A stretch of DNA of 64,000 bases from Candidatus Methylophosphatis haderslevensis (GTDB taxonomy: Bacteria > Pseudomonadota > Gammaproteobacteria > Burkholderiales > Rhodocyclaceae). Shown piece after piece: positions 6,121 through 17,452 of the stretch. Position numbers and translations under genes: made by a program. Location of the stretch: NCBI GenBank assembly GCA_016711925.1, contig JADJSA010000007.1, positions 18,087 through 82,086 on the forward strand. Direction: 5' to 3'. Under the pieces are notes generated by a model. That model ran no database searches. It worked only from the letters and a program-made list of their open reading frames with translations, and was not told where the DNA came from. Each line of letters begins with the position of its first letter. The stretch's first letter is position 1.

Positions 6121-6147
6121 AAAAGCCCGCAGAGTGCGGGCTTTTTT
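6121..6147 (+). terminator. rho-independent terminator of ppa
   Basis: GCCCGC-AGAGT-GCGGGC hairpin followed by T6, 19 nt after the ppa stop. Confidence 0.8.
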
Positions 6148-6330: not shown

Positions 6331-7455
6331 TCAAGAGGTCAGTCGGCGGGCGTTTGCCGCCTCGGCCGGCGGCAGGCGCTTGAGCGGAATGTTGACGTAG
6401 ATGCCGGCGAACAGGTCCGCATCGAGATAGTCGGCCGGCTTCGCAAGGTTGAAGCGCGGCGCGATTTCGTCGATCGCGAGGCGCGTCTTGTCGTCGAGCG
6501 TGCCGGTCGCGGCGAGCGGAAAGCCGAATTCCTTGAGCGTGTTCTGCAGCCACTTGACCTTGGTCGGCGTATCGTTCTTGACGTAGCTGCGCTTGATCGC
6601 ATCCATGACAACCGGGTCGGCCTTGCCGTTCGGAATGCAGCGCCAGTAGGGCACGTTGGTATGACGGCCGAGCACTTCGAGCACCGACAGGTCGACCAGC
6701 AGGCGGATCGCGCTGTGGCGTCCCTGCAGGTAGCGCGTGTTGCTCACCACGCCGAAGGCATTGCCATAGATCGCAAAATCGATGCCGTTCTCGTAAGTCT
6801 GGTTGAGCACCCGGATCGTGTTGGTCGCCTGCACCCGCGGAATCATGGTCTGGGTGCTGAAATCGATCAGGTTCAGATCGAGCGACAGATCGGACAATGT
6901 GGTGGCCGATTTGCGGTCCCAACTCAGGTCGGTCTGGCCGCGCCCGCCGCCGAACACGCCGCGTGCGTTCGCGCCCTTGCCCGCGCTGCCGATGGCGCGG
7001 TCGAATTCGGTGATCGCGCCGGTTATCAAAACGTCCGGCTGGGTCAGTTGAATCTTGGAACCCTGCTGCGCGTGGGCGATCACGTAATCGGGCTGGAACG
7101 GAACATATACGACTCGCTGCCCGACCCGGTTGATCGCGCTGCGCACCATCTCGGTGACGTCGCCGGGAAGTTCGGCGCCGACCAGCGGATGCGAAAGACC
7201 GGTGGCATCGCCGATGCCGCGCGTCTGCACATAGAGCACCTTGCCCGACGGGCGATACTTCTCCAGCAGGTCGCCGAAGCTCTCCAGCGCGCCGCTGTAG
7301 CGCGTGACCAGCGCGGTCGGGCTGCTCGATTCGGCCGTCTTCCTGGCCACCAATTCGCGCGCCGCCTTTTCGGACTCGCCGAGGGTTGCACACCCGCCGC
7401 CGGCCAGGCTGGCGATGGAGAGCAGAGCCAGACAACAGAATTTCGATGTGTTCAT
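6331..7455 (-). CDS. CsgG/HfaB-like outer-membrane lipoprotein with C-terminal peptidoglycan-binding domain
   Basis: Lipobox LAGGGC. Core resembles CsgG (GDATG...DVTEMVRSAINRVG...ITGAITEFD...LDLNLID). The C-terminus VKWLQNTLKEFGFPLAATGTLDDKTRLAIDE matches the PG_binding_1 pattern. Confidence 0.6.
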   Translation of the reverse strand: MNTSKFCCLALLSIASLAGGGCATLGESEKAARELVARKTAESSSPTALVTRYSGALESFGDLLEKYRPSGKVLYVQTRGIGDATGLSHPLVGAELPGDVTEMVRSAINRVGQRVVYVPFQPDYVIAHAQQGSKIQLTQPDVLITGAITEFDRAIGSAGKGANARGVFGGGRGQTDLSWDRKSATTLSDLSLDLNLIDFSTQTMIPRVQATNTIRVLNQTYENGIDFAIYGNAFGVVSNTRYLQGRHSAIRLLVDLSVLEVLGRHTNVPYWRCIPNGKADPVVMDAIKRSYVKNDTPTKVKWLQNTLKEFGFPLAATGTLDDKTRLAIDEIAPRFNLAKPADYLDADLFAGIYVNIPLKRLPPAEAANARRLTS

Positions 7456-7482
7456 GATCTCGTCCCGCCTATGGTTGGAAAT

Positions 7483-7857
7483 CTACTTGCCGCCCACCGT
7501 CGTGATGTTTCCGTTGATCGCGCCCCGTTCGACGATCACCGTGATGTTGCCGCGATTGCCGCCTTCGATATGCGGGCTCGCGATGTTGATGTCGCCGCCG
7601 TTGTCGTCCGGATTCGCCGAGACGGACTGCTTGTTGGCGATGGCGGTACGCACGTTCGACATGGCTTCATGCGTCGCGCGATGAGCCTTGCTGCGTGCCG
7701 CAACCGCGTAGATGCCGATATTCCGAACGTCGATCGGCTCGCGGTCGAGTTGCGCGGCATAGCCCTTGATCGGCGCGTAATACTCCGGGTCGATCGCGTT
7801 GGACACGTTTGCGATCAGGCAGCCCCAAAGTGCCAGGACAATTTTTCGTAGCAGCAT
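7483..7857 (-). CDS. small exported protein (124 aa), Gly/Asn-rich C-terminal repeats
   Basis: ATG at 7857, N-terminal hydrophobic signal MLLRKIVLALWGCLIANVSNA, tail GGDINIASPHIEGGNRGNITVIVERGAINGNITTVGGK. Only the last 124 codons of the 288-aa track ORF look coding. Confidence 0.5.
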   Translation of the reverse strand: MLLRKIVLALWGCLIANVSNAIDPEYYAPIKGYAAQLDREPIDVRNIGIYAVAARSKAHRATHEAMSNVRTAIANKQSVSANPDDNGGDINIASPHIEGGNRGNITVIVERGAINGNITTVGGK

Positions 7858-7913
7858 CTTTGCCTCCGGGCCGGACTGGGGGGCGACCGGGCGTCGCCCC
7901 CCAACGCGATTGA

Positions 7914-8270
7914 TCACTTCAGTACAACGGAATTCACGTTCATCGTGCCGCCACCGAGGTTGTAGACGTCTTCCGCCTTGTTGCCGTCGATCAGTACCGT
8001 CCCGCCGATCTTGCCGCCATTGGAGACCACCAGCGAGTTCACGTTGGTTTCGCCTGCCGCATCGACCTGGACTTTCGCACCCGTGAGCGCCCCGAGAACG
8101 CCGCCCGACTTGACCCCGACGTTCGCGCCGCCGGACATGATCCGGGTCGCCTTGTTGTTGCTTACGGTGACCGATGCGCCCGACATGATCTCCGGTGCGC
8201 CGGCGGCGAGTACGGACATCGACGCGGCAGCCAGCGTGGAAATGACAATCAACTTGGATACGATCTTCAT
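7914..8270 (-). CDS. small secreted repeat protein (118 aa), beta-solenoid/curlin-like periodicity
   Basis: Signal peptide MKIVSKLIVISTLAAASMSVLAAGA. The mature part is Gly/Asn/Val-rich, with a GG...V.V pattern recurring every ~15-17 aa. Confidence 0.6.
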   Translation of the reverse strand: MKIVSKLIVISTLAAASMSVLAAGAPEIMSGASVTVSNNKATRIMSGGANVGVKSGGVLGALTGAKVQVDAAGETNVNSLVVSNGGKIGGTVLIDGNKAEDVYNLGGGTMNVNSVVLK

Positions 8271-8361
8271 GTTGTGACTCCTTCTTGCGATGGTGGATGG
8301 TTGGCCGAAATTCGACCGGGTTGCCGGTGCCGCGCATGTCGCCCGGCACGAACGGAATCAG

Positions 8362-9169
8362 TCAGGCGAGGGCGCGAAACTGCACGCGACGGTTGTAGGC
8401 GCTGTTCGGGTGGGTGCCAGGCAGCGGCTTGGCGGAACCCAGCCCCTTCGCAACCAGCGCCGCTTCCGGGATGGCGTGGCTGGCGATCAGGTAGCGTTTG
8501 ACGGCCTCGGCGCGGAGCCGCGACAGCTTGAGGTTGCCGGCGCTCGAACCTGCGGCATTGGTGTGTCCCTCCACCACCACCTTGCGTTCGAAGCCTGCCA
8601 GCTTGATGCCCTCGGCGATCGAGTCGATCGCGCGCTTGGAGGCATCATTCAACTGCCATGAATTGTTGGCGAACTTGATCGCCAGCGCCAATGCGTCCGC
8701 CTTGCCGGCCGAGGCCGGCCGGGGCGATTCCGTCTGTTGCGCGGCCTTTCGCGCATAGGCGGTCGAAGCCACCGCTTCGCCGCGCAAGCCATCCGCCCGG
8801 GACGGCAGCGCATAGGCGGTCTTCTGCATCGCGCCGCCACTGCCGCGCTGCGCGATCTGGCCGAGTTTTGCGTTCCATGCGCCGACTGCTGCACTCGCGC
8901 TGGCGGCGATCTCGTCTTCGCTGACGGTATGGCCGGCATCCTTGATTTCCTGTTCCACCGCAGCGGGTTCGTCAGGTGTATAGAACAGACCGCGCGTCTT
9001 GGGCAGGCTGGCGAAGCGTGCCGGCGTGGCGCCCAGTATCCGCGCCACCACGCGCGGGTCGGGCACGTCCCCGGCCTGGTACACCCGGATGCTTTCCGCA
9101 CAGGCTGCAGCGCTCACGACAAGGGCGATCGAGCAGGGAGAGGGTCGAGCGGATGATTCGTGCGTTCAT
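8362..9169 (-). CDS. OmpA/MotB-family peptidoglycan-associated protein; signal peptide out of frame by one base
   Basis: C-terminal OmpA_C motif VVVEGHTNAAGSSAGNLKLSRLRAEAVKRYL...NRRVQF. The track ORF starts at GTG 9117 with no signal peptide. An ATG at 9169 with an AAGGAG RBS encodes MNARIIRSTLSL. Dropping one base near 9130-9134 joins it to IALVVSAAACAES. Confidence 0.65.
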
Positions 9170-9222: not shown

Positions 9223-9250
9223 TGTCGAAGGAGCGATCGCACCGGTTCAA
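9223..9250 (-). promoter_or_regulatory. ECF-type promoter candidate TTGAACC-N16-CGACA upstream of the ompA-like gene
   Basis: The minus strand reads TTGAACC-ggtgcgatcgctcctt-CGACA, in the 150-nt gap between the caspase stop (9320) and the ATG at 9169. Same -35, spacer length and -10 core as the two sites at 15769-15796 and 16156-16183. Confidence 0.55.
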
Positions 9251-9319: not shown

Positions 9320-12208
9320 TCAGCGAATCGGGCTCGCGATTTGCCCGATCACGCTGTCGCGCAGTGCGACGGGCGAAATCATCTGCGGGGTCTGCGGGCC
9401 GAGCCGCCGGTCGCGCAGGCGATCGACCATCGGCACGGCATGGTCGAACAGTTCGCGCAGAGTGAGCTTGCGGTCGCGATCGGCGTCGGCTGCACCGCTC
9501 AGACCCTCGAGCAGCGCATAGGTGAACAGGCCGTGCCGGCCCGGCGCATATTCTTGCGAATCCTCGCCGCCGCGCGCCGCCACCACCAGGGCGAAGCGCG
9601 AACTGGCCGAGCGTTTGGCGAGATTGTGAGAATCGAAGGTGCCGGCGATGTTCTTTGCCTGGCAGGTGTCGACGATCAATATGCGGCGTCCGGCGACGGC
9701 GCGCAACGCGTCGAAGAAATGCGTCCATGAGAGCAGCGAATCGCCGCCCGGCGGACGGCCCCTGACCAATTGTTCGACGTCTTTCGGATCGGCATCGCGC
9801 GGCACGAAGTAGTAGTTGCCGGCAGCGTCGCTGATGCCGTGCGAGGCGAGGAAGATCACCACCGTGTCGCGTGCGCGCGCTGAGCGCGCGAACTTGAGCG
9901 CGGCGAGGATGCTGGCCTTGTCGGGCTTGCCGGCGCTGGCATCGCTGAGCAGTTTGACGCGTACGTTGGCGAAGAGGCCCTTGCCCGTGCGTTCGAGTGC
10001 GGCGGCCATCTCCTCGGCGTCCTGTGCGGAGAAGTTCAGCCTGAACTTGTCGGCCAGCCGCGGAAAGCTGCCCGCACCGATCGCGAGCAGGTAGAGATCG
10101 CCACGGCCCGCGGCGGGTTCGGCGGCGTCGGAGAATACGACCTGTTCGGCAACGCCGATCGAGACGCCGTTGAACACCTCGACCCGCACCCGATTGATGC
10201 CGCGCGCGAGTTCAAGGTCGAGCTCGCGCGAAAACTGCTCGCTTGCGCCGCCGGAGAGTTCGCGCTCGCTGGCGGCGATCACCGGGACGTTGTTGACGAA
10301 CACCGCGACATCGCGCATCGGCAGGCGCGTGCGCTGCGCGCTCAGCCGAAAACGGGAACGGGATGCACTCTTCTCGCTGCGCCGCAGCCGTTCGAGTTGC
10401 AGCCGGGGCGGGGCCACTTCCGCCAGCCGCGTGACATCGAATCCCTTCTTCCCGTCGATCTCCGGCAACGCGCGACCCTTGCTGGTGAAAAATGCCTGGA
10501 CCATATCCGGCCGGTAGAGCAGCCGGTCGAACTGCGAGGCCAGCACGAAGTCGGGCGCGCTCTCCTTGCCCTGGTTGATAAGCCAGCCGATGTAGTTGTC
10601 GCCCTGCGGCGATGATGTGTAGTAGCCAGCCGGAATCCAGGCGATCCATTCGCGGCTGTGCGCGTGCACGAACAGCGCCAGCACTTCGGCGCCGTCGTCC
10701 ATCCGGTACCAGCGCAGGGTGCCGTCGCCCAGACCGGCGACCACCCATTCGCCATTGCCGCTGATCGTCGCCGCCAGCGCCACCGACGGAAGCGCCTTGC
10801 TCCACGCGATGGCGCCGGCGGAATCGACGCGGTGCAGGTTCCATTCGGTGCCGAGCACGGCGCTGCGCAGGTTCGGCGCGATCGCATGGCAGCGCGACCG
10901 CTCGTAGGGTTCGAGCGCGATGGCCTTGCCGTTGAGCATCGGGCGATAACCGTCGCGGGCGTGTTCGATTCTCCAGCCTGCGGCCGAACGGATCGGCCCT
11001 TGCAGGCCGCGACGCTGTTCGGCCGATGGTTCGCCGTCGGCTTCGGCGAGCGAGAAATACGCCGGGCCACGTGGCGCCGGAAACGACACCAGCGACGCAT
11101 CGGGAGCGAGTTTGAGCGTGGCGTTGATGTACACCGGCAACTCCGACTCATGCACCGCCAACACCTTGCCCTCGCTGTCGATCAGGCCGATGCTCGGATC
11201 GTCGGTGGTGAACGCGATCTCGCCCGACGCCGTGGCGGCGATGTCCCCGAGGCGGGTGCGGGCAACCGGCGTGGCGACCGGCTTGCCGCGCCCGTCTGCG
11301 GGCCAACAGCGGATGTGGTTGGTACCCGCGGCGCGAGCCTCGCCCGCGGCGCAGAGTTTTTTGCCGCGCGCCGCCCAACTCAGCGAATAGAGGTTGACCA
11401 GATTGGCCGCCGCGTCGCGGGCCGAGGCCCAGATTGGCGTCAAGTCCCGGGCCGAGAGGACGGCGATGCGCGGCGTGTCGTAAAAGCCTACGGCTATCCG
11501 CTCGCCGTCCGGTGAATAGCGGATCGACGCCGGTTTGTTCCCGGCGAGCATGCGCTTGCGCAGGCGCAGCCTGGCCTGCTCGTCATAGAGCCGGACCATG
11601 CCGTCGAGCGAACTGACCGCGAGGCGCCCGGCCGCGTCGTAGTCCATCTCGATTATTTTGTCGGCATACTGCGCGTCGCGCCCGGCAATCCGGTAGTCGC
11701 TGCTGTCCAGAACGTAGAGCCCCGAATTGCCAAGCAGGCCGACCGCCAGGTGCTTTCCGTCCGGCGAATAGCCGAGCGCGCCGACCCCTTCGGGAAAGCC
11801 GCCGATCCGGCGCACCAGGCGCCCGCCGTTCATGTCGAACAGATAGACGCTGGCCTTGCCGTCCCAGTCCCAACCGGTCCACCCGGCCACAGCCAGGGTG
11901 GCGCCGTCGGGCGAGAGGGCGGCGGCGTACAACTGGCCTTCGTTTCCGTCGGCGATCGGCACGCGCAAGGTCGCCCGCAACTGCAAGTCGGGCAGGCCCC
12001 AGATGCGTATGGTTTTGTCGTGACCGACCGAAATGATCTGGGAACGCGTGGCGTCGGCCACGATCTTGTGCACGGCGCCGACGTGGGAGCCGGGTTCGAT
12101 CAGAAGAATCGGCGCTGCCGGCGGCCCGTCGATGCGCGCGACCCCCGGCAGGGGACAAGCGAGGCTGGTGGCGGCCAGCAGCGCCGCGAGCCAGCGCCGA
12201 CTACCCAC
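9320..12208 (-). CDS. secreted WD40 beta-propeller / caspase (peptidase C14) fusion protein
   Basis: N-terminal signal peptide (RRWLAALLAATSLA). WD repeats (GHDKTIRIWGL, SLDGMVRLYD, GLGDGTLRWY). C-terminal C14 domain with His in VVIFLASHG and Cys in ILIVDTCQA. Confidence 0.8.
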   Translation of the reverse strand: MGSRRWLAALLAATSLACPLPGVARIDGPPAAPILLIEPGSHVGAVHKIVADATRSQIISVGHDKTIRIWGLPDLQLRATLRVPIADGNEGQLYAAALSPDGATLAVAGWTGWDWDGKASVYLFDMNGGRLVRRIGGFPEGVGALGYSPDGKHLAVGLLGNSGLYVLDSSDYRIAGRDAQYADKIIEMDYDAAGRLAVSSLDGMVRLYDEQARLRLRKRMLAGNKPASIRYSPDGERIAVGFYDTPRIAVLSARDLTPIWASARDAAANLVNLYSLSWAARGKKLCAAGEARAAGTNHIRCWPADGRGKPVATPVARTRLGDIAATASGEIAFTTDDPSIGLIDSEGKVLAVHESELPVYINATLKLAPDASLVSFPAPRGPAYFSLAEADGEPSAEQRRGLQGPIRSAAGWRIEHARDGYRPMLNGKAIALEPYERSRCHAIAPNLRSAVLGTEWNLHRVDSAGAIAWSKALPSVALAATISGNGEWVVAGLGDGTLRWYRMDDGAEVLALFVHAHSREWIAWIPAGYYTSSPQGDNYIGWLINQGKESAPDFVLASQFDRLLYRPDMVQAFFTSKGRALPEIDGKKGFDVTRLAEVAPPRLQLERLRRSEKSASRSRFRLSAQRTRLPMRDVAVFVNNVPVIAASERELSGGASEQFSRELDLELARGINRVRVEVFNGVSIGVAEQVVFSDAAEPAAGRGDLYLLAIGAGSFPRLADKFRLNFSAQDAEEMAAALERTGKGLFANVRVKLLSDASAGKPDKASILAALKFARSARARDTVVIFLASHGISDAAGNYYFVPRDADPKDVEQLVRGRPPGGDSLLSWTHFFDALRAVAGRRILIVDTCQAKNIAGTFDSHNLAKRSASSRFALVVAARGGEDSQEYAPGRHGLFTYALLEGLSGAADADRDRKLTLRELFDHAVPMVDRLRDRRLGPQTPQMISPVALRDSVIGQIASPIR

Positions 12209-12229
12209 GTGGCCGGCCCCGCAGCCTGG

Positions 12230-13978
12230 TCAGGAGCAGGCCGTGGCGCGAGACTGCTCTGCGCGGCGCACTGCCACATGCCGCGCCGGCGCGCGCGCTT
12301 TGCACGCCACCGGCGGCGTCGTTGCCGCGTTGCTCGCGCGGGCGAACACATCTGGGGCGGCGCCATAGGCTGGGGAACTGCGACCCAGATCGGCCGTCTG
12401 CGCGATGCCGCGACCGCTGAGTTCGCCCGGCCGGTGCGGCGCACTGGCCTGCACCGGGTTCTCGGCGACTCGCAGGCCGCGGGTTACCGTGTCGCCCTGC
12501 AGCCGCGCGAGCGCAAACGACGCGCGGGTGACGCGGCCGAAGATCAGCGGTTGGACCGGATTGCCCGGGGCTGCCGCCAAGGTGCGGGTTGTGGCAGCGC
12601 GCGCCTGACGCGGACGGCGGTTGCGCGGCGGGTTGGCGGCGTACTCGTCGTCGCCGGCTTGCGCGACCGCTCGCGAGGCGGCGGCTTTGGCGGCCTGGGT
12701 TTGGCCGGAGGCGCGCCGGGCAGGGAAGTCGGCGGCGGTGTCTTTCGGCGCGGTGGCGGCCGTGGGCCGCGTGGCGTCGAACTCGCCGATGCTGCGATCG
12801 ACGATATCCATGCCCTGGCGCAGCGACTGCGCCGCAGGCGCACCGGCACGGCTCGGATCGGCGCTCGAATCGGGCAACATGACGGTGATGCTGCCGGGGT
12901 CCGGGTTACGCTGTTGCGACGCGGGGCTTTGCGGCACGCTTCCGGCCACCGGGTCGCCCTGCTGCGACGTCGGGCCGTGGGGAACCTGGCCGCGCGGCGT
13001 TTCTCTCCCTCCGACGGCCTTGCCGGTTGATGGATCGATCGCACTGGCACTCGGCGCATAGGCGAGTTTGACCGGTTCGCTCGCGGCCGTGTTGCGTACG
13101 CTGCCTGAACCGGCGCTTTCCCATGCAGCCGGAGCGGGAGCGGAATTGCTGGCAGCGCTGCCCGGTGCGGCTCTGCCCGAGCGCTCGGCCTGTTGCGGGC
13201 GCGACGGTGCCGGCTGGGGCGCGCTGGTCGGTGCGGCCTGCGTTGCGCTGGCATTGGGCGGCGGGAACGCTGCCGGCGACACTGCGGTCTTGAGCAGCGT
13301 TCCGTCCGGGTTGCGGTAGTAGTTGATGGTGATCTCGTGGCCGTCCGATCCCTTGACGTACTCGGTCTTGACCGGGTTGCCGAGCCCGCCACCCGTGCTG
13401 GTCCTGGATGCGCCGGCGGCGGTTTGCGCCGCTGCCGCAGCCGCGGTGGCCGCGGGGCGATCCGCGCCGCCTTGCCCCGTGGCGGAGGCTGGCGCCGGTG
13501 GTGGCGGCGCAGCCGCCGCGCGAGGTGCCGACGAAACCGCTTCTACCGGTTTGGCAGGCTGATCGGGTGCCTTGGTGATGGCGACGGACGGGGTACGGGG
13601 AATCTGCCCGTTCAGGCCGCCGCCGCCGAGCATGGATTTGGCACCGGAGACCGGCGCCGGCTGCGCCGCTGCGGTCTTTGCGGCAGGGGCGACCTTTGCG
13701 GCAACGGCCGCCGCCGCGGACGCCGCGCCCTTTGCAACAGCCGGGACCAGCGGGGGCGGGGCTTTGACGGGCTTGGCGGCGGCGGACGTGGTCGACTGCC
13801 TGGATGCGCTTTGGCTGGTGTTCGGCGGAATGATGCCTCCGCTCGAGAATCTCGCATCGGCCTTGCCGGATGCCAGGACAGAGAAAACGATGCCCAGACA
13901 CAGGGCAGAGATGCGCCGCGTTGGCCCGGTGCACGTCCGGCGGGAATTGTGCCGCGCTGCAGTCGAGATTCGTGTCAT
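12230..13978 (-). CDS. secreted Ala/Pro/Ser/Thr-rich low-complexity protein (582 aa), function unknown
   Basis: GGGGAGA RBS plus ATG at 13978, signal-like segment ISALCLGIVFSVLASGKADA. It is the only frame without an extreme Arg bias. It sits tightly packed between the TpsB-like and caspase genes. Confidence 0.5.
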   Translation of the reverse strand: MTRISTAARHNSRRTCTGPTRRISALCLGIVFSVLASGKADARFSSGGIIPPNTSQSASRQSTTSAAAKPVKAPPPLVPAVAKGAASAAAAVAAKVAPAAKTAAAQPAPVSGAKSMLGGGGLNGQIPRTPSVAITKAPDQPAKPVEAVSSAPRAAAAPPPPAPASATGQGGADRPAATAAAAAAQTAAGASRTSTGGGLGNPVKTEYVKGSDGHEITINYYRNPDGTLLKTAVSPAAFPPPNASATQAAPTSAPQPAPSRPQQAERSGRAAPGSAASNSAPAPAAWESAGSGSVRNTAASEPVKLAYAPSASAIDPSTGKAVGGRETPRGQVPHGPTSQQGDPVAGSVPQSPASQQRNPDPGSITVMLPDSSADPSRAGAPAAQSLRQGMDIVDRSIGEFDATRPTAATAPKDTAADFPARRASGQTQAAKAAASRAVAQAGDDEYAANPPRNRRPRQARAATTRTLAAAPGNPVQPLIFGRVTRASFALARLQGDTVTRGLRVAENPVQASAPHRPGELSGRGIAQTADLGRSSPAYGAAPDVFARASNAATTPPVACKARAPARHVAVRRAEQSRATACS

Positions 13979-14010: not shown

Positions 14011-15726
14011 TCAGAAGCGGTAGCTGAGTCCAGCGAACAGCCGCGGACGGCGGTTGCCAGGCTCGGACACATCGCGCGTCAGCGGCTGCGCGACTTCCAC
14101 AAACGCGCCGGCGCTGCTGCCCAAATTCATGCGCACTCCCAGGCCCGCGGAGGACGCGGAGTGTGAAGAAACTTCACCGAGATCTTGCCGCGGCGAGCGA
14201 ATCCAGGCCTTGCCGATGTCGTAGAAACCGTAAACCGTGTACGGGCCGGGCAGCGCTTCGGGTTTGCCGCCGCTCAGGCGCAGCTCGAGCTTGAGCGCCA
14301 GGCCGGAATCGCCCACCAGTTCGGCCGCATTGTAGCCCCGCCCGAACTGTTCGCCGCCGAACGCGAACTGCTCCGGCACCAGCAGGCTGTTGGCGGCGAT
14401 CTGGCCATTGATTGCCGCCAGCAGCGACCAGCGCTCGGCGATCGATTGCAGCCGAGCGGCATAAATCGTGGTCTTGAAAAAGTCGTTGCGGCCGTTCTCG
14501 CGCGAACGGTCCGGATCGTCGTTCGACGATGCGCCCAGGCCGCGCAGACCCTTGGACAATTCGACCTCGAGCAGATTCACGCCGCCTAGGGTATCCACCG
14601 AGTCGAGCGTCATTGCCAGCCGCAGCGCGCGAATTCGGTCGCGGGTAACCGGCGAACCGGGCACGTCGGTCTTGCCGTTGTGCGCGGTGTAGGCGCCGCG
14701 CAGATAAACGTTGGCGTCCTGCGTGCGGTAGAGCGGGTAGCTCGCCGAAATTGCCATGCCGCGCGACTGCGTTTCGAGGTTGCTGTTGAAGCCGGGATCG
14801 CTGGCGCGTGAATCGCTGCCATTGACCGAAAGGCCCACCCGCGCGCCGCTCGATCCGATCGGTTCGTCATGGGAAAGGACGAGGTAGTTAAGTTCGCGGT
14901 TGCCGGTGGTCACGGCACGAAACGCAGTCTCGTCGAAGTTCCCGGTAAGCCCGGTTGCGAACACGTCGAAATAGCCGCGCCAGGCACCGGCGGATCGACT
15001 GCCCCGGTTGTCCGCAGCGACCGCGCCGCCGAAGCGGTTGCGCGCGACCTCGATGACCAGCGCATGCGCGCCGGGTTGCCCGGAGATCGGTTCCAACGCG
15101 GAAGAAACGCCGAGGCCGCCGAGATCGTTCATCAGGAACAGATTGCGCTCGAGCACGTTTGCCGTTGCCGGGCGCTCCTGGCGAATCGGCTGGACGAACG
15201 GCTCGAAGGCCGCGAGCGGGATGTCGCCGCCGCCTTGAATCCGCACCTCGGCCACGTAACCCTCGCTGGCGGCAAGACGCACCACGCCGTTGGTCACGCT
15301 TTGCTCGGGCACCGCGACTTCCGACAACAGGTAGCCGTCGCGTCGATAGCGCTGAGTGAGCGTCTCGGCCAGCGCCATCAACTCGGCCTGCGTCACCTTG
15401 CGGCCGAGGTAGGGCGCGAACACCGGTTGCAGATCGTCCTGACGATACACGGTGCTGCCTTCGAGTTGGAAACCCGATACGTCGACGCCTTCGCCCAGCG
15501 GGGGCGGACGGGTTGCGCGTTGGGGCAGGGCCGGCGGGCGCGGTCTCGCGCCACTGCGCGATTGCGGCGGCTTGCGGAATTGCCGTTCGACCTGGCCGCC
15601 GGAATCGATGTCGCCGGCGCCGATTGCGACCGGCACAGAGGTTGCGCAAAGGATGAGAACGGCGAGCGGCCGCCGGGCAATCAGGCAGACGCGGTTACGG
15701 CGTCGATCACTCAAGTTGGGCTGCAT
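14011..15726 (-). CDS. ShlB/FhaC/HecB-family (TpsB) outer-membrane transporter with POTRA domain
   Basis: 571 aa. Signal peptide, POTRA-like FQLEGSTVY...LGRKVTQAELMALAETLTQRYRRDGYLLSEV, and a beta-barrel ending ...RLFAGLSYRF with a terminal aromatic residue. Confidence 0.8.
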   Translation of the reverse strand: MQPNLSDRRRNRVCLIARRPLAVLILCATSVPVAIGAGDIDSGGQVERQFRKPPQSRSGARPRPPALPQRATRPPPLGEGVDVSGFQLEGSTVYRQDDLQPVFAPYLGRKVTQAELMALAETLTQRYRRDGYLLSEVAVPEQSVTNGVVRLAASEGYVAEVRIQGGGDIPLAAFEPFVQPIRQERPATANVLERNLFLMNDLGGLGVSSALEPISGQPGAHALVIEVARNRFGGAVAADNRGSRSAGAWRGYFDVFATGLTGNFDETAFRAVTTGNRELNYLVLSHDEPIGSSGARVGLSVNGSDSRASDPGFNSNLETQSRGMAISASYPLYRTQDANVYLRGAYTAHNGKTDVPGSPVTRDRIRALRLAMTLDSVDTLGGVNLLEVELSKGLRGLGASSNDDPDRSRENGRNDFFKTTIYAARLQSIAERWSLLAAINGQIAANSLLVPEQFAFGGEQFGRGYNAAELVGDSGLALKLELRLSGGKPEALPGPYTVYGFYDIGKAWIRSPRQDLGEVSSHSASSAGLGVRMNLGSSAGAFVEVAQPLTRDVSEPGNRRPRLFAGLSYRF

Positions 15727-15768
15727 TGACGAATTATCGGGCGGTTGGTTTGGGGTTGCTCACGGCTA

Positions 15769-15796
15769 AGTCGAAACCGGCGCCCGCGGGGTTCAA
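15769..15796 (-). promoter_or_regulatory. ECF-type promoter candidate TTGAACC-N16-CGACT upstream of the TpsB-like operon
   Basis: The minus strand reads TTGAACC-ccgcgggcgccggttt-CGACT. The -10 lies about 43 nt upstream of the ATG at 15726. Confidence 0.6.
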
Positions 15797-16155
15797 GAAA
15801 TTTAAGGCGGGCGGGCGAACAATCGGGCTGCGTCCAGCGTCCAAAGTGCCATCGAGCCGGTCGGGCGCGCCGGCAAACGCCGGCCGGCATGATGCTGAAA
15901 TCCGTCTTGCGGCACGCCAGCCGCCGGATCGGGACCAGCCTGCGGGTCGGGACCGGGAGCGCTCCACGCCGATCCGCCACGCAGACGATGGTATCCGACT
16001 CCATTGGCATCGTCCAGATCAAATGCTGTCGCCGCGTGGCGACAGGGAGTGCGTAGCCGATCGTCTCGCACGGGGCTTGCAGCGCGGCCGGTCCGCTGCG
16101 CCCAAGCGCCCATGCAATAATCCGTACCGCTTCTGCCGATGGCGACAAACACAAT

Positions 16156-16183
16156 TTGAACCTGCGCGCGCCTTGCTGCGACT
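16156..16183 (+). promoter_or_regulatory. ECF-type (autoregulatory) promoter candidate TTGAACC-N16-CGACT upstream of the sigma gene
   Basis: The plus strand reads TTGAACC-tgcgcgcgccttgctg-CGACT. The -10 ends 5 nt before the ATG at 16189, which implies a leaderless or near-leaderless mRNA. Confidence 0.55.
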
Positions 16184-16188
16184 CAACA

Positions 16189-16767
16189 ATGACGTCACGA
16201 AACGCCGAGCCGGAAGACCCTCGCATACGGACCCTGCTCGACGCTGTTGAACGCGGCGACGAGGCAGCCATGCAGGATTTGTACCGCTCGTTCAACCGGC
16301 GCGTGTTCGCGTTCGCGATGAACCGTCTGAACGACCATGCGGAGGCCGAAGAAGTGACCATCGATACGCTGCTCGAAGTGTGGAAGCACCCGCAACGATT
16401 CCGTGGCGAATCGCGCTTCAGCACGTGGCTGCTCGGCATCGCGCATCACAAGGCGATCGATCGCCTGCGTTCGCGTCGCAACGATCATGTGCCGGCAGAC
16501 GAGCATCTCGATCTGATCGCCGACCCGGCATTGCGCCCCGACCAGGTGGTCGAAGCGGCCGATCGGCAGCGCATGCTCGCCGAGTGCATGGACAAGCTGC
16601 CCGACGAACAGCGCGAGTGCCTGCACCTGGTGTTGCTCGACGGGCTGTCGCTGGCGGAAGTGTCGCAGGTCCAGGCATGCCCGGAAAACACGGTGAAGAC
16701 GCGGCTCTTCCACGCGCGGCAGAAGATGAAGAACTGCCTCGGGCGGCTCGAAGCCTGGAGTGCCTGA
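16189..16767 (+). CDS. ECF (group 4) RNA polymerase sigma factor
   Basis: Sigma-70 region 2 (DLYRSFNRRVFAFAMNRLNDHAEAEEVTIDTLLEVW) and region 4 (LPDEQRECLHLVLLDGLSLAEVSQVQACPENTVKTRLFHARQKM). The start is taken at ATG 16189. Confidence 0.88.
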   Translation: MTSRNAEPEDPRIRTLLDAVERGDEAAMQDLYRSFNRRVFAFAMNRLNDHAEAEEVTIDTLLEVWKHPQRFRGESRFSTWLLGIAHHKAIDRLRSRRNDHVPADEHLDLIADPALRPDQVVEAADRQRMLAECMDKLPDEQRECLHLVLLDGLSLAEVSQVQACPENTVKTRLFHARQKMKNCLGRLEAWSA

Positions 16768-16768
16768 C

Positions 16769-17452
16769 ATGAGCGAACCGACGACCGAAGCGAACGGCGC
16801 ACGGACTGCCATGATGTTCGCGTATCTGAATGGCGAATTGCCGGCTGACGAACGCGCGCGCTTTGAAGCGACGCTCGACGCCGAGCCGAAGCTTGCCGCC
16901 GAACTGGCCGACTGGCGGCAGCTTCGCGGCGAACTCGAAGTGCGCAGGCAGCAGCGCGCGCCGGAGGCCGGACTGGACGCGTTTTCACGCCAATTGCGGG
17001 GTTTGCGGCAGTCGCGCAAGGCCGGCCTTGCCGCATGGATCGAGGGCGCGATGCGCCCGCTCTATTCACCCCTGCGCTATGCCGCAGCGTTGCTGCTGGT
17101 GGTGGTACAGGCCGGTTTCATCGCCGCCATGTTGCGCGACATGCCGGCGGCCGGGCCGGACGACGCCGGCACGCCGACCGCCCGGGTGCGTTCGATCGAG
17201 AATGCGTCGACGGCCTCGCTGCGCGTGCGCTTCCGGCTCGACGCAACCGCGCGCGAGATCGCCGCCGCCCTGGCGAGCGCCGGTGCGCGCATCGTGGATG
17301 GCCCGGGGCAGGGCGGGTTTTATGCTTTGCGGGTCGCCGAGGGCACGCCTGCCGCCGCGGCCGCCGCGCTGCGTAAGAGTGCGGCCGTCGACGAGATTGT
17401 CGAAGGCCCGAACCCCGAGGCGCCGCCCGCCGATCCGCCGCGCAAGCGCTAG
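16769..17452 (+). CDS. anti-sigma factor, single-pass membrane protein
   Basis: The start overlaps the sigma stop (TGACATG). N-terminal anti-sigma-like helix pattern MMFAYLNGELPADERARFEATLDAEPKLAAELADW without Zn ligands. One TM segment (YAAALLLVVVQAGFIAAML) and a periplasmic C-terminal domain. Confidence 0.7.
   Translation: MSEPTTEANGARTAMMFAYLNGELPADERARFEATLDAEPKLAAELADWRQLRGELEVRRQQRAPEAGLDAFSRQLRGLRQSRKAGLAAWIEGAMRPLYSPLRYAAALLLVVVQAGFIAAMLRDMPAAGPDDAGTPTARVRSIENASTASLRVRFRLDATAREIAAALASAGARIVDGPGQGGFYALRVAEGTPAAAAAALRKSAAVDEIVEGPNPEAPPADPPRKR

Follow-up and report, generated by a model that had tools for sequence, protein, structure and literature searches.

To our knowledge, curli and the Caulobacter holdfast anchor are the only CsgG-type systems that have been studied in depth. 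Small subunits that form multimers are the cargo of the channel in both of these characterised systems, curli and HfaABD (PMC6707917). A cluster of three lipoproteins, comprising CsgG, DUF799 (GNA1162) and DUF4810 proteins, is found in Acinetobacter, Neisseria and Vibrio. This cluster is uncharacterised, has been termed 'curli-like' and is linked to the extracellular matrix (bioRxiv 10.1101/2021.05.19.444899).

The four-gene unit described here comes from Candidatus Methylophosphatis haderslevensis and lies on the minus strand of the window, which is the whole 64,000-nt stretch of DNA that was analysed. In order from the promoter, the genes encode an OmpA-like wall-binding protein of 251 aa (8362..9169, with an intact open reading frame at 8362-9117), a 118-aa secreted repeat protein that is the candidate exported subunit (7914..8270), a 124-aa secreted protein referred to as IASP (7483..7857, with its ATG at 7857) and a 374-aa lipoprotein of the outer membrane that is predicted to adopt the CsgG fold (6331..7455). 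All four genes that an earlier sequence-only reading of the window had proposed are present.

As in curli, a lipoprotein with a CsgG fold, predicted in this case, is encoded alongside a small Sec-dependent repeat subunit rich in Gly and Asn, and the gene for a small accessory secreted protein directly precedes the channel gene, as csgF precedes csgG. Other elements differ from curli. The subunit repeat is NxA...GG...NVNS with rungs of ~30 residues rather than the curlin repeat, and systems related to the one in the window include covalent giant concatemers of the subunit. The window channel adds an N-terminal helical extension, a PG_binding_1-like C-terminal domain and an OmpA-like partner, and its constriction loop has another sequence. 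Probable control by an ECF sigma factor takes the place of CsgD. Finally, the genome has no homologue of CsgA, CsgB, CsgC, CsgE or CsgF. The Pfam models Curlin_rpt, CsgF and CsgE find no match in the whole genome, with a positive E. coli control, which agrees with the absence of CsgA, B, E and F asserted from the sequence alone. Comparison by hhalign of the subunit and IASP profiles with E. coli CsgA, CsgB, CsgF and CsgE returns only signal-peptide matches or short, non-significant ones.

The Caulobacter HfaA/HfaB/HfaD system likewise requires a CsgG-like lipoprotein to display small multimer-forming proteins (PMC6707917), and some homologues of the window lipoprotein are labelled 'CsgG/HfaB family' by NCBI. 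However, the window lipoprotein was rejected as an HfaB orthologue, as it scores 24 bits against the NCBIfam HfaB equivalog NF037935, for which the cut-off is 300. NCBIfam also places neither of the small proteins in any family, and window-type loci are without holdfast polysaccharide genes, belong to another taxon (Burkholderiales) and are differently regulated. The three-lipoprotein cluster resembles the unit in being centred on a CsgG/HfaB family lipoprotein without curlin genes, but its partners are two lipoproteins instead of a repeat subunit, an IASP protein and an OmpA-like protein. Its GNA1162 component appears as a weak match (E 0.07) in the fold search with the window lipoprotein.

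A lipoprotein with a predicted CsgG fold

Similarity of the 374-aa lipoprotein to CsgG is marginal at the sequence level. Its score against Pfam CsgG (PF03783) is 22.6 bits, compared with a gathering score of 20.8, and 6 of 31 close homologues match this model at E<0.01. A sequence-profile search of the PDB with the lipoprotein returns no CsgG match. Alignment to E. coli CsgG by hhalign is weak but in register (probability 19%, E 1.2e-3), pairing residues 75-215 with CsgG 48-195 across a span that takes in a Gly-rich stretch where CsgG has its first membrane hairpin.

The protein is nevertheless predicted to have the three-dimensional fold of CsgG. When its AlphaFold2 model (pLDDT 71.6, pTM 0.66) is compared with the PDB by Foldseek, ranks 1-25 are all occupied by CsgG chains (6l7a, 4uv3, 4q79, 6si7 and others), with E-values from 2e-10 to 4e-6, a probability of 1.0 and target-normalised TM-scores of 0.35-0.55. 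The first match to another protein is FlgT, at E 2.5e-4. A structure unlike CsgG had been named beforehand as the outcome that would speak against the sequence-only reading; the model matches CsgG at E 2e-10.

The model comprises a helical N-terminal extension, the CsgG fold (~70-270) and a helical PG_binding_1-like C-terminal domain (~275-355). By sequence, the protein carries an N-terminal lipoprotein signal with a Cys predicted to be lipidated. This residue, Cys22, does not vary among 31 sequences, most of which have L-x-G/A just before it, and the lipobox of the window protein reads LAGGGC followed by Ala. Insertions at ~155-186 and ~214-247 occupy both membrane-hairpin positions of CsgG, the first being Gly-rich like TM1. 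In the model, both form long hairpins, although at low confidence (pLDDT 32-55), and the alternating hydrophobic pattern in these putative membrane hairpins is moderate.

The constriction loop of E. coli CsgG contains Tyr, Asn and Phe residues and corresponds to the stretch PYPASNFSTAVP in the hhalign alignment. The aligned loop of the lipoprotein, LSHPLVGAELPGD, is four residues shorter, and the Tyr/Asn/Phe arrangement is not found in it. Across the lipoprotein family this loop reads LSxPLVGAE(L/I)PGD, with S88, P90, G93, E95, P97 and D99 invariant. A conserved but different loop is therefore present.

The peptidoglycan-binding domain that had been proposed at the C terminus is likely, although its score against PG_binding_1 (PF01471) of 19.4 bits falls below the gathering score of 23. 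Five of the 31 homologues match this model at E<0.01. PG_binding_1 proteins (4xxt, endolysin 7rum, 4nso and AmpDh2) come first when a profile of the domain is compared with the PDB (E 0.06-0.3), and AlphaFold2 confidently builds the region as a helical bundle (pLDDT 84-92). A domain of this kind on the channel, which curli CsgG does not have, could point to a structural rather than a transport role.

A repeat module found singly and in concatemers

The 118-aa protein consists of a signal peptide and ~96 residues, of which 19% are Gly, 16% Val and 10% Asn. It is the sole member of its family in the genome, which contains no giant repeat protein. The period of 15-17 residues ascribed to it earlier gives way to two NxA...GG...NVNS units, with NKA at 39 and 97 and NVNS at 76 and 111, which are modelled as about three rungs of ~30 residues. 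In an alignment of subunits (A4), P26, N39, N76, N78, N97, N111 and N113 are invariant, and the invariant Asn sits at matching positions in both units. BLASTP does not detect an internal repeat, and searches of Pfam and NCBIfam yield no family match.

AlphaFold2 predicts an all-beta structure of ~11 short strands for this protein (mean pLDDT 73, rising to 83-92 in the C-terminal half). This rung-like model is compatible with the beta-solenoid that had been suggested from the sequence. A structure search of the PDB with the model finds no structural neighbour, and the term 'solenoid' therefore describes solely the secondary-structure pattern given by AlphaFold2. Two small repeat proteins had originally been envisaged. 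The 118-aa protein is one, but the 124-aa protein represents a separate family.

The Asn-ladder module of ~80 residues also occurs in 8-13 tandem copies in Comamonadaceae proteins of 1050-1285 aa. A profile made from the small subunits only recovers 8-10 tandem full-length copies in 48 of 48 giant proteins, with E-values from 1e-59 to 1e-66. A whole-library search shows that long proteins contain 5-13 copies and proteins of 105-130 aa just one, and the family as a whole amounts to 73 clusters among 1.84 billion proteins. Because tandem copies are joined in the giant Comamonadaceae proteins, the module is probably a stackable unit.

Candidate accessory proteins

The IASP protein has a signal peptide, a conserved N-terminal stretch that contains Tyr and the C-terminal motif INIASPxIxGxxRGN(I/V)T(V)xVE. 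Residues Y33, A93, S94, P95, I97 and G103 are invariant in alignment A5. Its gene is closely spaced with the channel gene, from an overlap of 4 nt in locus L012 to 27 nt of separation in the window. Comparisons with CsgF, CsgE and the subunit reveal no similarity, and all of its homologues are named 'hypothetical' in the databases. IASP is a candidate accessory protein rather than a repeat subunit, and may serve the channel as adaptor, gate or nucleator.

The OmpA-like protein matches Pfam OmpA (PF00691) at residues 149-239 with 64.8 bits (cut-off 27.2), in keeping with the anchor role claimed for it. The protein combines a Sec signal peptide, a conserved N-terminal domain (IRVYxxGxVPDPxVVAxILG) and a C-terminal OmpA_C domain. 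The ATG at 9169 and the OmpA-like reading frame, which had been treated as continuous, lie in different frames. DNA alignment with the 87%-identical orthologous locus L018 shows that the CCC run at 9136-9138 is longer by one C in the window, and the gene is frameshifted by one base in this assembly. The L018 gene encodes an intact signal peptide (MNKKFIRSTLACSIALFTSAAIHA, followed by ESIRLY). A PADLOC search with the four proteins and their neighbours assigns no defence system; its only matches are of the MotB/OmpA_C type, between the OmpA-like protein and ZorB models.

Related loci and a paralogous module

Among 54 related loci, the channel gene is immediately preceded by the IASP gene in 53 and has a repeat gene upstream in 52; an OmpA-like gene is present in 46. 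Carriers include relatives of Candidatus Methylophosphatis, Acidovorax, Variovorax, Ottowia and other Comamonadaceae. Such bacteria are frequent in activated sludge and on the roots of plants. In Comamonadaceae, the genes form part of a conserved ten-gene island that encodes the Sec-dependent giant repeat proteins, and no gene of this island besides the channel is recognised as an outer-membrane transporter.

The same genome contains a paralogous module (G000, contig C1, ~542431-547030), which has relatives in loci L005 and L010. Its gene order is likewise OmpA-like protein, repeat subunit, small secreted protein and CsgG-like lipoprotein with a PG_binding_1-like domain, and its channel and OmpA-like proteins are homologues of their window counterparts (phmmer 5.8e-29 for the latter). 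The subunits, however, are unlike. That of the paralogous module has four curlin-like VKQSGALN(S/T)QxVxIGNA repeats, rich in Q/N and in register with the CsgA repeats. In addition, its small protein is unrelated in sequence to IASP, its channel carries an extra DUF4384 domain (58.8 bits), and a DUF2807 protein comes next.

Promoter and transcript architecture

A promoter had been expected ahead of the unit, and an ECF-sigma-type motif, TTGAACC-N16-CGAC, is found at 9224..9250 on the minus strand, ~55 nt upstream of the ATG at 9169. Three exact copies occur in the window, each at the start of one of three transcription units. The other two, at 15770-15796 and 16156-16182, precede a TpsB operon and an ECF sigma factor gene (16189-16767, plus strand; Pfam Sigma70_r2, Sigma70_r4_2 and Sigma70_ECF), respectively. 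With one mismatch allowed, the window contains 5 matches, compared with 1.15 expected by chance. The sigma gene is followed on the same strand by a zf-HC2 anti-sigma factor gene (16760-17452; Pfam zf-HC2).

This arrangement is conserved. In loci L018, L019, L012 and L022, the motif lies 75-105 nt 5' of the OmpA-like gene and also precedes the ECF sigma gene, and the ECF/anti-sigma pair is present in every locus of the window arrangement with flanks that are long enough. The sigma gene and the four-gene unit, with a motif common to both and retained in orthologous loci, form an ECF regulon as judged by their putative promoters. The ECF sigma factor and its zf-HC2 anti-sigma factor are probable regulators of the unit.

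Two hairpins may shape the transcript. A GC-rich stem-loop with a 12-bp stem (7876..7904, minus strand, from a fold of 7850-7925) directly follows the stop codon of the 118-aa gene. Hairpins of unrelated sequence occupy the equivalent site in L002, L019, L012, L021, L022 and L011, so that, with the window, seven loci have a hairpin 3' of the subunit gene. It is possibly an attenuator or mRNA stabiliser that raises subunit mRNA over that of the downstream genes. A palindromic hairpin at 6121..6145, between the channel gene and the convergent ppa gene, was found by a terminator scan of the plus strand. Since its A/T flanks are symmetric, it would serve the minus strand as well and is the probable end of the four-gene unit.

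A model for export and its alternatives

The interpretation that we favour, by a little over an even chance, is that the unit, under ECF control and anchored to peptidoglycan, exports a new kind of beta-solenoid surface subunit by a CsgG-dependent (type VIII-like) route. Much the same had been suggested by the sequence-only reading, which envisaged a CsgG-like channel, small repeat subunits and wall anchors in the absence of CsgA, B, E and F. Fold and synteny back this interpretation, as do the concatenated module, the all-beta subunit model and the curlin-like paralogue. We regard the four genes as belonging to an undescribed, rare family of CsgG-type systems, and we infer export, polymerisation and amyloid character of the small proteins.

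In this model, the ECF sigma factor, once freed from its anti-sigma factor, would activate the putative promoter at 9224-9250. All four products, whose sequences show signal peptides, would cross the inner membrane by the Sec pathway. The 374-aa protein would receive its lipid at Cys22 and be targeted to the outer membrane. There, an oligomer with the predicted fold may form a CsgG-type beta-barrel channel with a presumed pore. The PG_binding_1-like domain and the OmpA-like partner would fasten the channel complex to the cell wall. The 118-aa protein would thread the channel unfolded and then fold outside as a short Asn-ladder beta-solenoid. These solenoids may stack end to end to form a fibre or surface layer, a step suggested by the Comamonadaceae giants because they join 8-13 copies of the module covalently. 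IASP, although unrelated in sequence to CsgF, CsgE or CsgB, may resemble them in serving the channel as adaptor, gate or nucleator. The hairpin that follows the subunit gene would shift the mRNA balance towards the subunit and away from the machinery genes.

An unlikely alternative is that the unit staples the envelope. In this case, a non-conducting lipoprotein ring of the FlgT/PelC type would act with the OmpA-like protein to tie the outer membrane to peptidoglycan under stress, and the small proteins would remain in the periplasm, unexported, as spacers or regulators. The two wall-binding parts, the OmpA_C domain and the PG_binding_1-like domain, are suited to such a function, ECF control is typical of envelope stress responses, and the membrane hairpins of the lipoprotein are poorly modelled. 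The fold search also returns non-channel ring relatives further down its ranking, including GNA1162 and, at ranks 26-38, Vibrio FlgT, HpaA and PelC, which share the core fold and a place under the outer membrane. However, these three score at E 2.5e-4 and worse, the E-values of CsgG are better than those of the ring proteins by about six orders of magnitude, and no flagellar or Pel genes lie near the unit. The lipoprotein also has insertions at both membrane-hairpin sites of CsgG. The Comamonadaceae islands argue further against stapling, as their Sec-dependent repeat proteins of ~1200 aa have no other recognised outer-membrane exporter among the conserved genes, and proteins of this kind are typical of surface fibres, not of periplasmic spacers. 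The curlin-like subunit of the paralogous module is a final point against it.

Quite unlikely, too, is an anchor of the HfaABD type, in which the exported small proteins would assemble on the channel into a short multimeric plug, with no free-standing fibres, and hold another surface polymer to the cell. The tethered polymer could be a polysaccharide or the neighbouring Ala/Pro-rich protein exported by TpsB. The single-module subunit of this genome, with no giant repeat protein, fits such a plug, as does a channel firmly anchored to the wall, and the promoter motif common to the unit and the TpsB/Ala-Pro-rich neighbours indicates co-regulation. HfaA and HfaD, which depend on HfaB, act in this way (PMC6707917). 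However, the lipoprotein falls far below the HfaB cut-off, the TpsB/Ala-Pro-rich pair is found in only three related loci and is wholly absent from Comamonadaceae, and no polysaccharide genes are seen in the conserved islands.

All loci of the window arrangement with enough flank contain one or two Peptidase_C14 genes (a WD40-caspase in the window, L018 and L019; a short caspase and a Sel1-caspase in L012, L021 and L022), and the DUF4384 domain of the paralogous channel is noted elsewhere as an accessory domain of bacterial orthocaspases (PMC7475262). It is nonetheless improbable that the four genes serve these neighbouring periplasmic C14 peptidases, for example with the small proteins as substrates or inhibitors of the caspases and the channel as an outlet for the cleavage products, because the repeat-IASP-channel core occurs with no caspase or ECF gene in the fetched flanks of ~46 giant-protein loci, and caspases are therefore not needed for core function.

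Implications

The preferred export model can be extended to an unrecognised CsgG-dependent branch, which we consider plausible at somewhat less than an even chance. The ~80-residue module would be exported through a wall-anchored channel with a dedicated IASP protein and would build surface fibres by either of two routes. In this genome, single-module subunits would stack non-covalently; in Comamonadaceae, the fibres would come from concatemers in which 8-13 modules are already joined covalently. The occurrence of one module both as a single-unit protein and as a giant concatemer makes non-covalent and covalent stacking directly comparable.

CsgG is a working nanopore in sequencing devices, and divergent channels with another constriction loop may therefore interest pore engineers. 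A third CsgG system with unrelated subunits and accessories would separate the general parts, which are the channel fold and an unfolded repeat substrate, from interchangeable ones, namely the substrate repeat, adaptor, wall anchoring and regulation. If the branch is real, then together with the paralogous module it would make the set of OmpA-like protein, subunit, adaptor and CsgG-like channel bearing a peptidoglycan-binding domain a general cassette in which the subunit has been swapped several times in evolution. In the habitats of its carriers, surface fibres shape flocs and biofilms.

Gene organization and putative promoters

The module that the sequence-only reading had described is confirmed at that site, with corrections, by the coordinates and Pfam matches of four minus-strand genes. 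The first gene encodes an OmpA-like protein (ORF 8362-9117, with an ATG at 9169 that has a good ribosome-binding site; Pfam OmpA, 64.8 bits). It is followed by genes for a 118-aa repeat protein, the candidate exported subunit (7914-8270), and a secreted 124-aa protein (7483-7857), which have no Pfam match, and then by the gene for a 374-aa CsgG-like lipoprotein (6331-7455), the putative channel, whose Pfam CsgG score is 22.6 bits against a cut-off of 20.8. The successive intergenic gaps are 91, 56 and 27 nt. On the upstream side the window encodes a WD40-caspase, an Ala/Pro-rich protein and a TpsB transporter.

An ECF promoter motif, TTGAACC-N16-CGAC, is located at 9224-9250, about 55 nt 5' of the ATG at 9169. 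Two further exact copies precede the TpsB operon (15770-15796) and the divergent ECF sigma factor gene (16156-16182). This sigma factor gene (16189-16767) and the adjacent gene for a zf-HC2 anti-sigma factor (16760-17452) are both confirmed by Pfam. The ECF promoter motif recurs in four related loci from other genomes (L012, L018, L019 and L022), where it stands 75-105 nt 5' of the OmpA-like gene and also precedes the sigma gene. A 242-aa minus-strand ORF (15711-16439) that overlaps the start of TpsB as well as the ECF sigma gene was set down as probably spurious, because its only 'homologues' in other loci are antisense to ECF sigma genes.

The OmpA-like gene is interrupted in the available sequence. 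The frame that begins at the ATG at 9169 reads MNARIIRSTLSLL, and the OmpA-like ORF goes on as IALVVSAAACAESIRVYQ in a different frame. An intact signal peptide, MNKKFIRSTLACSIALFTSAAIHA followed by ESIRLY, is found in the orthologous locus L018 from Candidatus Methylophosphatis roskildensis, whose channel protein is 87% identical. In a DNA alignment with L018, the window carries one surplus C in the CCC run at 9136-9138 that splits the signal peptide from the ORF. This extra C is at least as likely to be a homopolymer error of a metagenome-type assembly as the mark of a real pseudogene.

The putative channel lipoprotein

A protein collection search yields 223 homologues of the 374-aa protein with lengths of 360-420 aa. 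Nearly all are unnamed or 'hypothetical', and a few are labelled 'CsgG/HfaB family'. In an alignment of 31 channel homologues, the lipobox Cys22 and the loop LSxPLVGAE(L/I)PGDITEM are invariant. No CsgG is among the PDB matches of the family's sequence profile; of the PDB searches, only the one by fold brought up CsgG. Direct comparison with E. coli CsgG by hhalign gives a weak match (probability 19%, E 1.2e-3), in a register that pairs channel residues 75-215 with CsgG residues 48-195 and places a Gly-rich stretch at the position of the first CsgG membrane hairpin. When the AlphaFold2 model (pLDDT 71.6, pTM 0.66) is used to search the PDB for similar folds, ranks 1-25 are all CsgG chains (E 2e-10 to 4e-6, probability 1.0), and FlgT, HpaA, PelC and GNA1162 rank next with E values of 2.5e-4 or worse. 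The CsgG-like lipoprotein proposed earlier thus agrees with the predicted structure, and the CsgG fold is decided as far as a prediction can decide it.

Insertions are present at both CsgG membrane-hairpin positions. They alternate in hydrophobicity to a moderate degree, and the low confidence with which they are modelled is what one would expect of a monomer model. It is conceivable, if unlikely, that the lipoprotein does not conduct at all and forms a ring that staples the envelope.

The C-terminal 90 residues of the channel are confidently modelled as a helical bundle. For this region the sequence-only reading had proposed an appended peptidoglycan-binding domain. The Pfam PG_binding_1 score of 19.4 bits is below the cut-off of 23. 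Proteins containing PG_binding_1 (an amidase, an endolysin, a type VI effector and AmpDh2) are the first PDB matches of a profile of the C-terminal domain. Since these profile matches come first with E values of only 0.06-0.3, a wall-binding domain is likely but not proven.

The candidate repeat subunit and giant concatemers of its module

The mature subunit has about 96 residues, of which 19% are Gly, 16% Val and 10% Asn, and it contains no Cys. P26 and six asparagines are invariant in 34 small homologues. The asparagines make two NxA...GG...NVNS(V) units, the first of which carries a variable insert; the two halves of the protein give no alignment with each other by BLASTP. The AlphaFold2 model is all-beta. 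Its short strands, about 11 in number, fall into three groups, and the mean pLDDT of 73 rises to 83-92 over the C-terminal half. A fold search with this model finds no match in the PDB and no meaningful match in a viral library, so no named solenoid class can be assigned.

The strongest argument for a stackable subunit module comes from tandem copies in giant Comamonadaceae proteins (1050-1285 aa). A full-module profile built from small subunits alone matches 48 of 48 giants (E 1e-59 to 1e-66) and locates 8-10 full-length tandem copies in each. In the Diaphorobacter giant, for example, copies lie at residues 55-139, 151-223 and onward to 748-821. The copies are followed by simpler 28-29-residue repeats with the consensus DNSGSIAGSQITILGNQGSARGGGTVNSV; a profile of the 29-residue unit from the giants' C-termini gives no significant score on the small subunit proteins. 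Because evolution has repeatedly fused the module head to tail, the module probably stacks, and the 118-aa protein is probably one such module. A rival and much less probable reading of the module is that the four genes serve to anchor a different surface polymer.

The family to which the subunit belongs is small. A search of 1.84 billion representative proteins, the whole library, finds only 73 members. Some have a single module and a length of 105-130 aa, and the others carry 5-13 copies; NCBI names them 'hypothetical' or 'beta strand repeat-containing'. The window's genome encodes exactly one member. A GC-rich 12-bp hairpin is located 3' of the subunit stop codon (7876-7904), and hairpins of unrelated sequence occur at the corresponding site in six other loci. 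Such a hairpin would fit a structural gene whose mRNA is needed in larger amounts than those of the machinery genes.

The 124-aa IASP protein

The 124-aa protein, which we name IASP for its C-terminal motif, has a signal peptide and, close to the N-terminus of the mature part, the invariant Y33. Its middle is variable, and its C-terminus is conserved as (I/L)(N/R)IASPxIxGxVxGN(V/I)T(L/V)xV(E/D). All of its 272 relatives are unnamed. Comparison by hhalign of the IASP profile with CsgF, CsgE and the subunit reveals no detectable similarity. The IASP gene lies directly before the channel gene, with spacing that ranges from a 4-nt overlap (L012, gene calls) up to the 27-nt gap of the window, and this suggests a protein that acts at the channel. 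By analogy with CsgF, CsgE or CsgB it might be an adaptor, a gate or a nucleator; of all steps in the model, this role is the least secure.

Distribution and arrangements

A scan of species-representative genomes found 55 related loci, almost all from Burkholderiales going by their records. Carriers include Acidovorax, Variovorax, Xylophilus, Xenophilus, Ottowia, Pseudacidovorax, Diaphorobacter, Vandammella, Methylibium, Rhizobacter, Aquabacterium and Methylophosphatis. Gene content was established from ORF calls and from iterated HMMs seeded with the window's proteins. A channel ORF is present in 54 loci; among these, the IASP gene is immediately 5' of the channel in 53, a repeat-family gene is upstream of it in 52 and an OmpA-like gene is present in 46. 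One exception is a contig of 3.4 kb, and the other is a divergent locus from Methylococcaceae. The module is patchy in the window's own family (two of three genomes of the genus, none of 22 other genera sampled) and occurs in 4 of 401 genomes of its order.

Two arrangements are found. Arrangement A is a Comamonadaceae ten-gene island with varying flanks, represented by L011 (5333-14181) and by about 45 further loci, among them L063, L027 and L035. It contains genes for a divergent lipoprotein, an approximately 119-aa subunit, a giant repeat protein (1050-1285 aa), IASP and the channel. Its remaining genes encode two small proteins, the second of which matches Sel1 weakly, as well as a two-cysteine repeat protein, a DUF4352 protein, an OmpA-like protein and a zinc-ribbon protein. 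This conserved set yielded no further outer-membrane transporter and neither an ECF sigma factor nor a caspase. Arrangement B, with the order OmpA-like, subunit (107-123 aa), IASP and channel, is that of the window, L018, L019, L012/L020, L021, L022 and L017. Wherever the flank suffices, an ECF/anti-sigma pair and one or two C14 peptidases come before it, accompanied by an outer-membrane barrel. The barrel of the window, like that of L018 and L019, is a TpsB, and that of L012, L021 and L022 is of the autotransporter type.

Upstream of the L012 module lie a short C14 peptidase and an autotransporter-type barrel, and on its downstream side a Sel1-caspase lipoprotein is encoded (flanking features at 6381-8318 and 11070-12713). 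L021 and L022 share this context; the hosts of such loci are Rhizobacter, Methylibium and an uncultured Burkholderiales bacterium. The window counterpart is the WD40-caspase with TpsB, so a C14 peptidase with a barrel is a recurring accompaniment of the module; that the module is itself an accessory of the adjacent caspases is improbable. A second WD40-caspase paralogue is encoded on contig C6 of the same genome (108829-111657, E 1e-182); the WD40-caspase HMM comprises the window caspase and its two orthologues.

Two other loci are worth describing. L071 (8810-13232), from a Methylococcaceae MAG, is a divergent relative (34% identity) with genes for an OmpA-like protein, a 95-aa two-cysteine secreted protein, a 520-aa CsgG-like protein, a 102-aa lipoprotein, a second OmpA-like protein and a DUF2807 protein; neither type of repeat subunit was recognised in it. 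L026, titled Sphingomonas sp. NCPPB 2930, has an island of the Comamonadaceae type. Its channel and the one from Xylophilus ampelinus are almost identical (P0059 versus P0061, few differing positions in alignment A1). The organism label of L026 may be wrong.

A paralogous module elsewhere in the genome

The channel HMM also found a paralogue outside the window, on contig C1 (approximately 542431-547030), in a neighbourhood that keeps the gene order of the module. Its OmpA-like protein shares the N-terminal motif of the window protein (phmmer 5.8e-29). Next come a 147-aa protein with four curlin-like VKQSGALN(S/T)QxVxIGNA repeats, a secreted 107-aa protein and a CsgG-like lipoprotein of 517 aa, as counted from a chosen internal start in a longest ORF of 549 aa (PG_binding_1, 22.2 bits; DUF4384, 58.8 bits). 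Genes for a 111-aa protein and then a DUF2807 protein follow on the 3' side. This order recurs in two loci of other genomes (L005 and L010), and channel paralogues of similar size (open frames of about 430-630 aa) occur in 10 of 41 related genomes searched. A channel gene followed by a DUF2807 gene is also found in L019 and L017.

The repeats of the 147-aa protein align in register with CsgA repeats by BLASTP, with an E value (0.18) that is not significant. By hhalign, the small proteins of the paralogous module have no homology to the window families past the signal peptides. The channel and the OmpA-like protein are kept between modules whose small proteins are unrelated, and by these sequence comparisons the cassette seems to retain its channel and wall anchor while swapping subunit and adaptor.

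Relation to known systems

In its presumed mode of working the module resembles curli and the Caulobacter HfaABD system, in which a CsgG-type lipoprotein is required to display small multimer-forming proteins on the surface (PMC6707917), yet it belongs to neither. The lack of recognisable CsgA, CsgB, CsgE and CsgF noted earlier is borne out: Curlin_rpt, CsgE and CsgF have no match in the whole genome, and when the subunit and IASP profiles are compared by hhalign with E. coli CsgA, CsgB, CsgF and CsgE, or with each other, the only matches are to signal peptides or are short and non-significant. The 374-aa protein is also far below the NCBIfam cut-off for HfaB (24 bits versus 300). The module differs as well from the three-lipoprotein CsgG/DUF799/DUF4810 cluster studied in Acinetobacter (bioRxiv 10.1101/2021.05.19.444899). 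PADLOC assigns it to no defence system. Literature searches on CsgG with the carrier genera, on CsgG-like or type VIII secretion and on DUF4384 with CsgG returned no description of this system.

The hedged curli- or holdfast-anchor-like reading is supported as far as computation allows. On balance we lean towards an ECF-controlled, wall-anchored, CsgG-dependent module that would export a new beta-solenoid subunit, and all of its components are unannotated.
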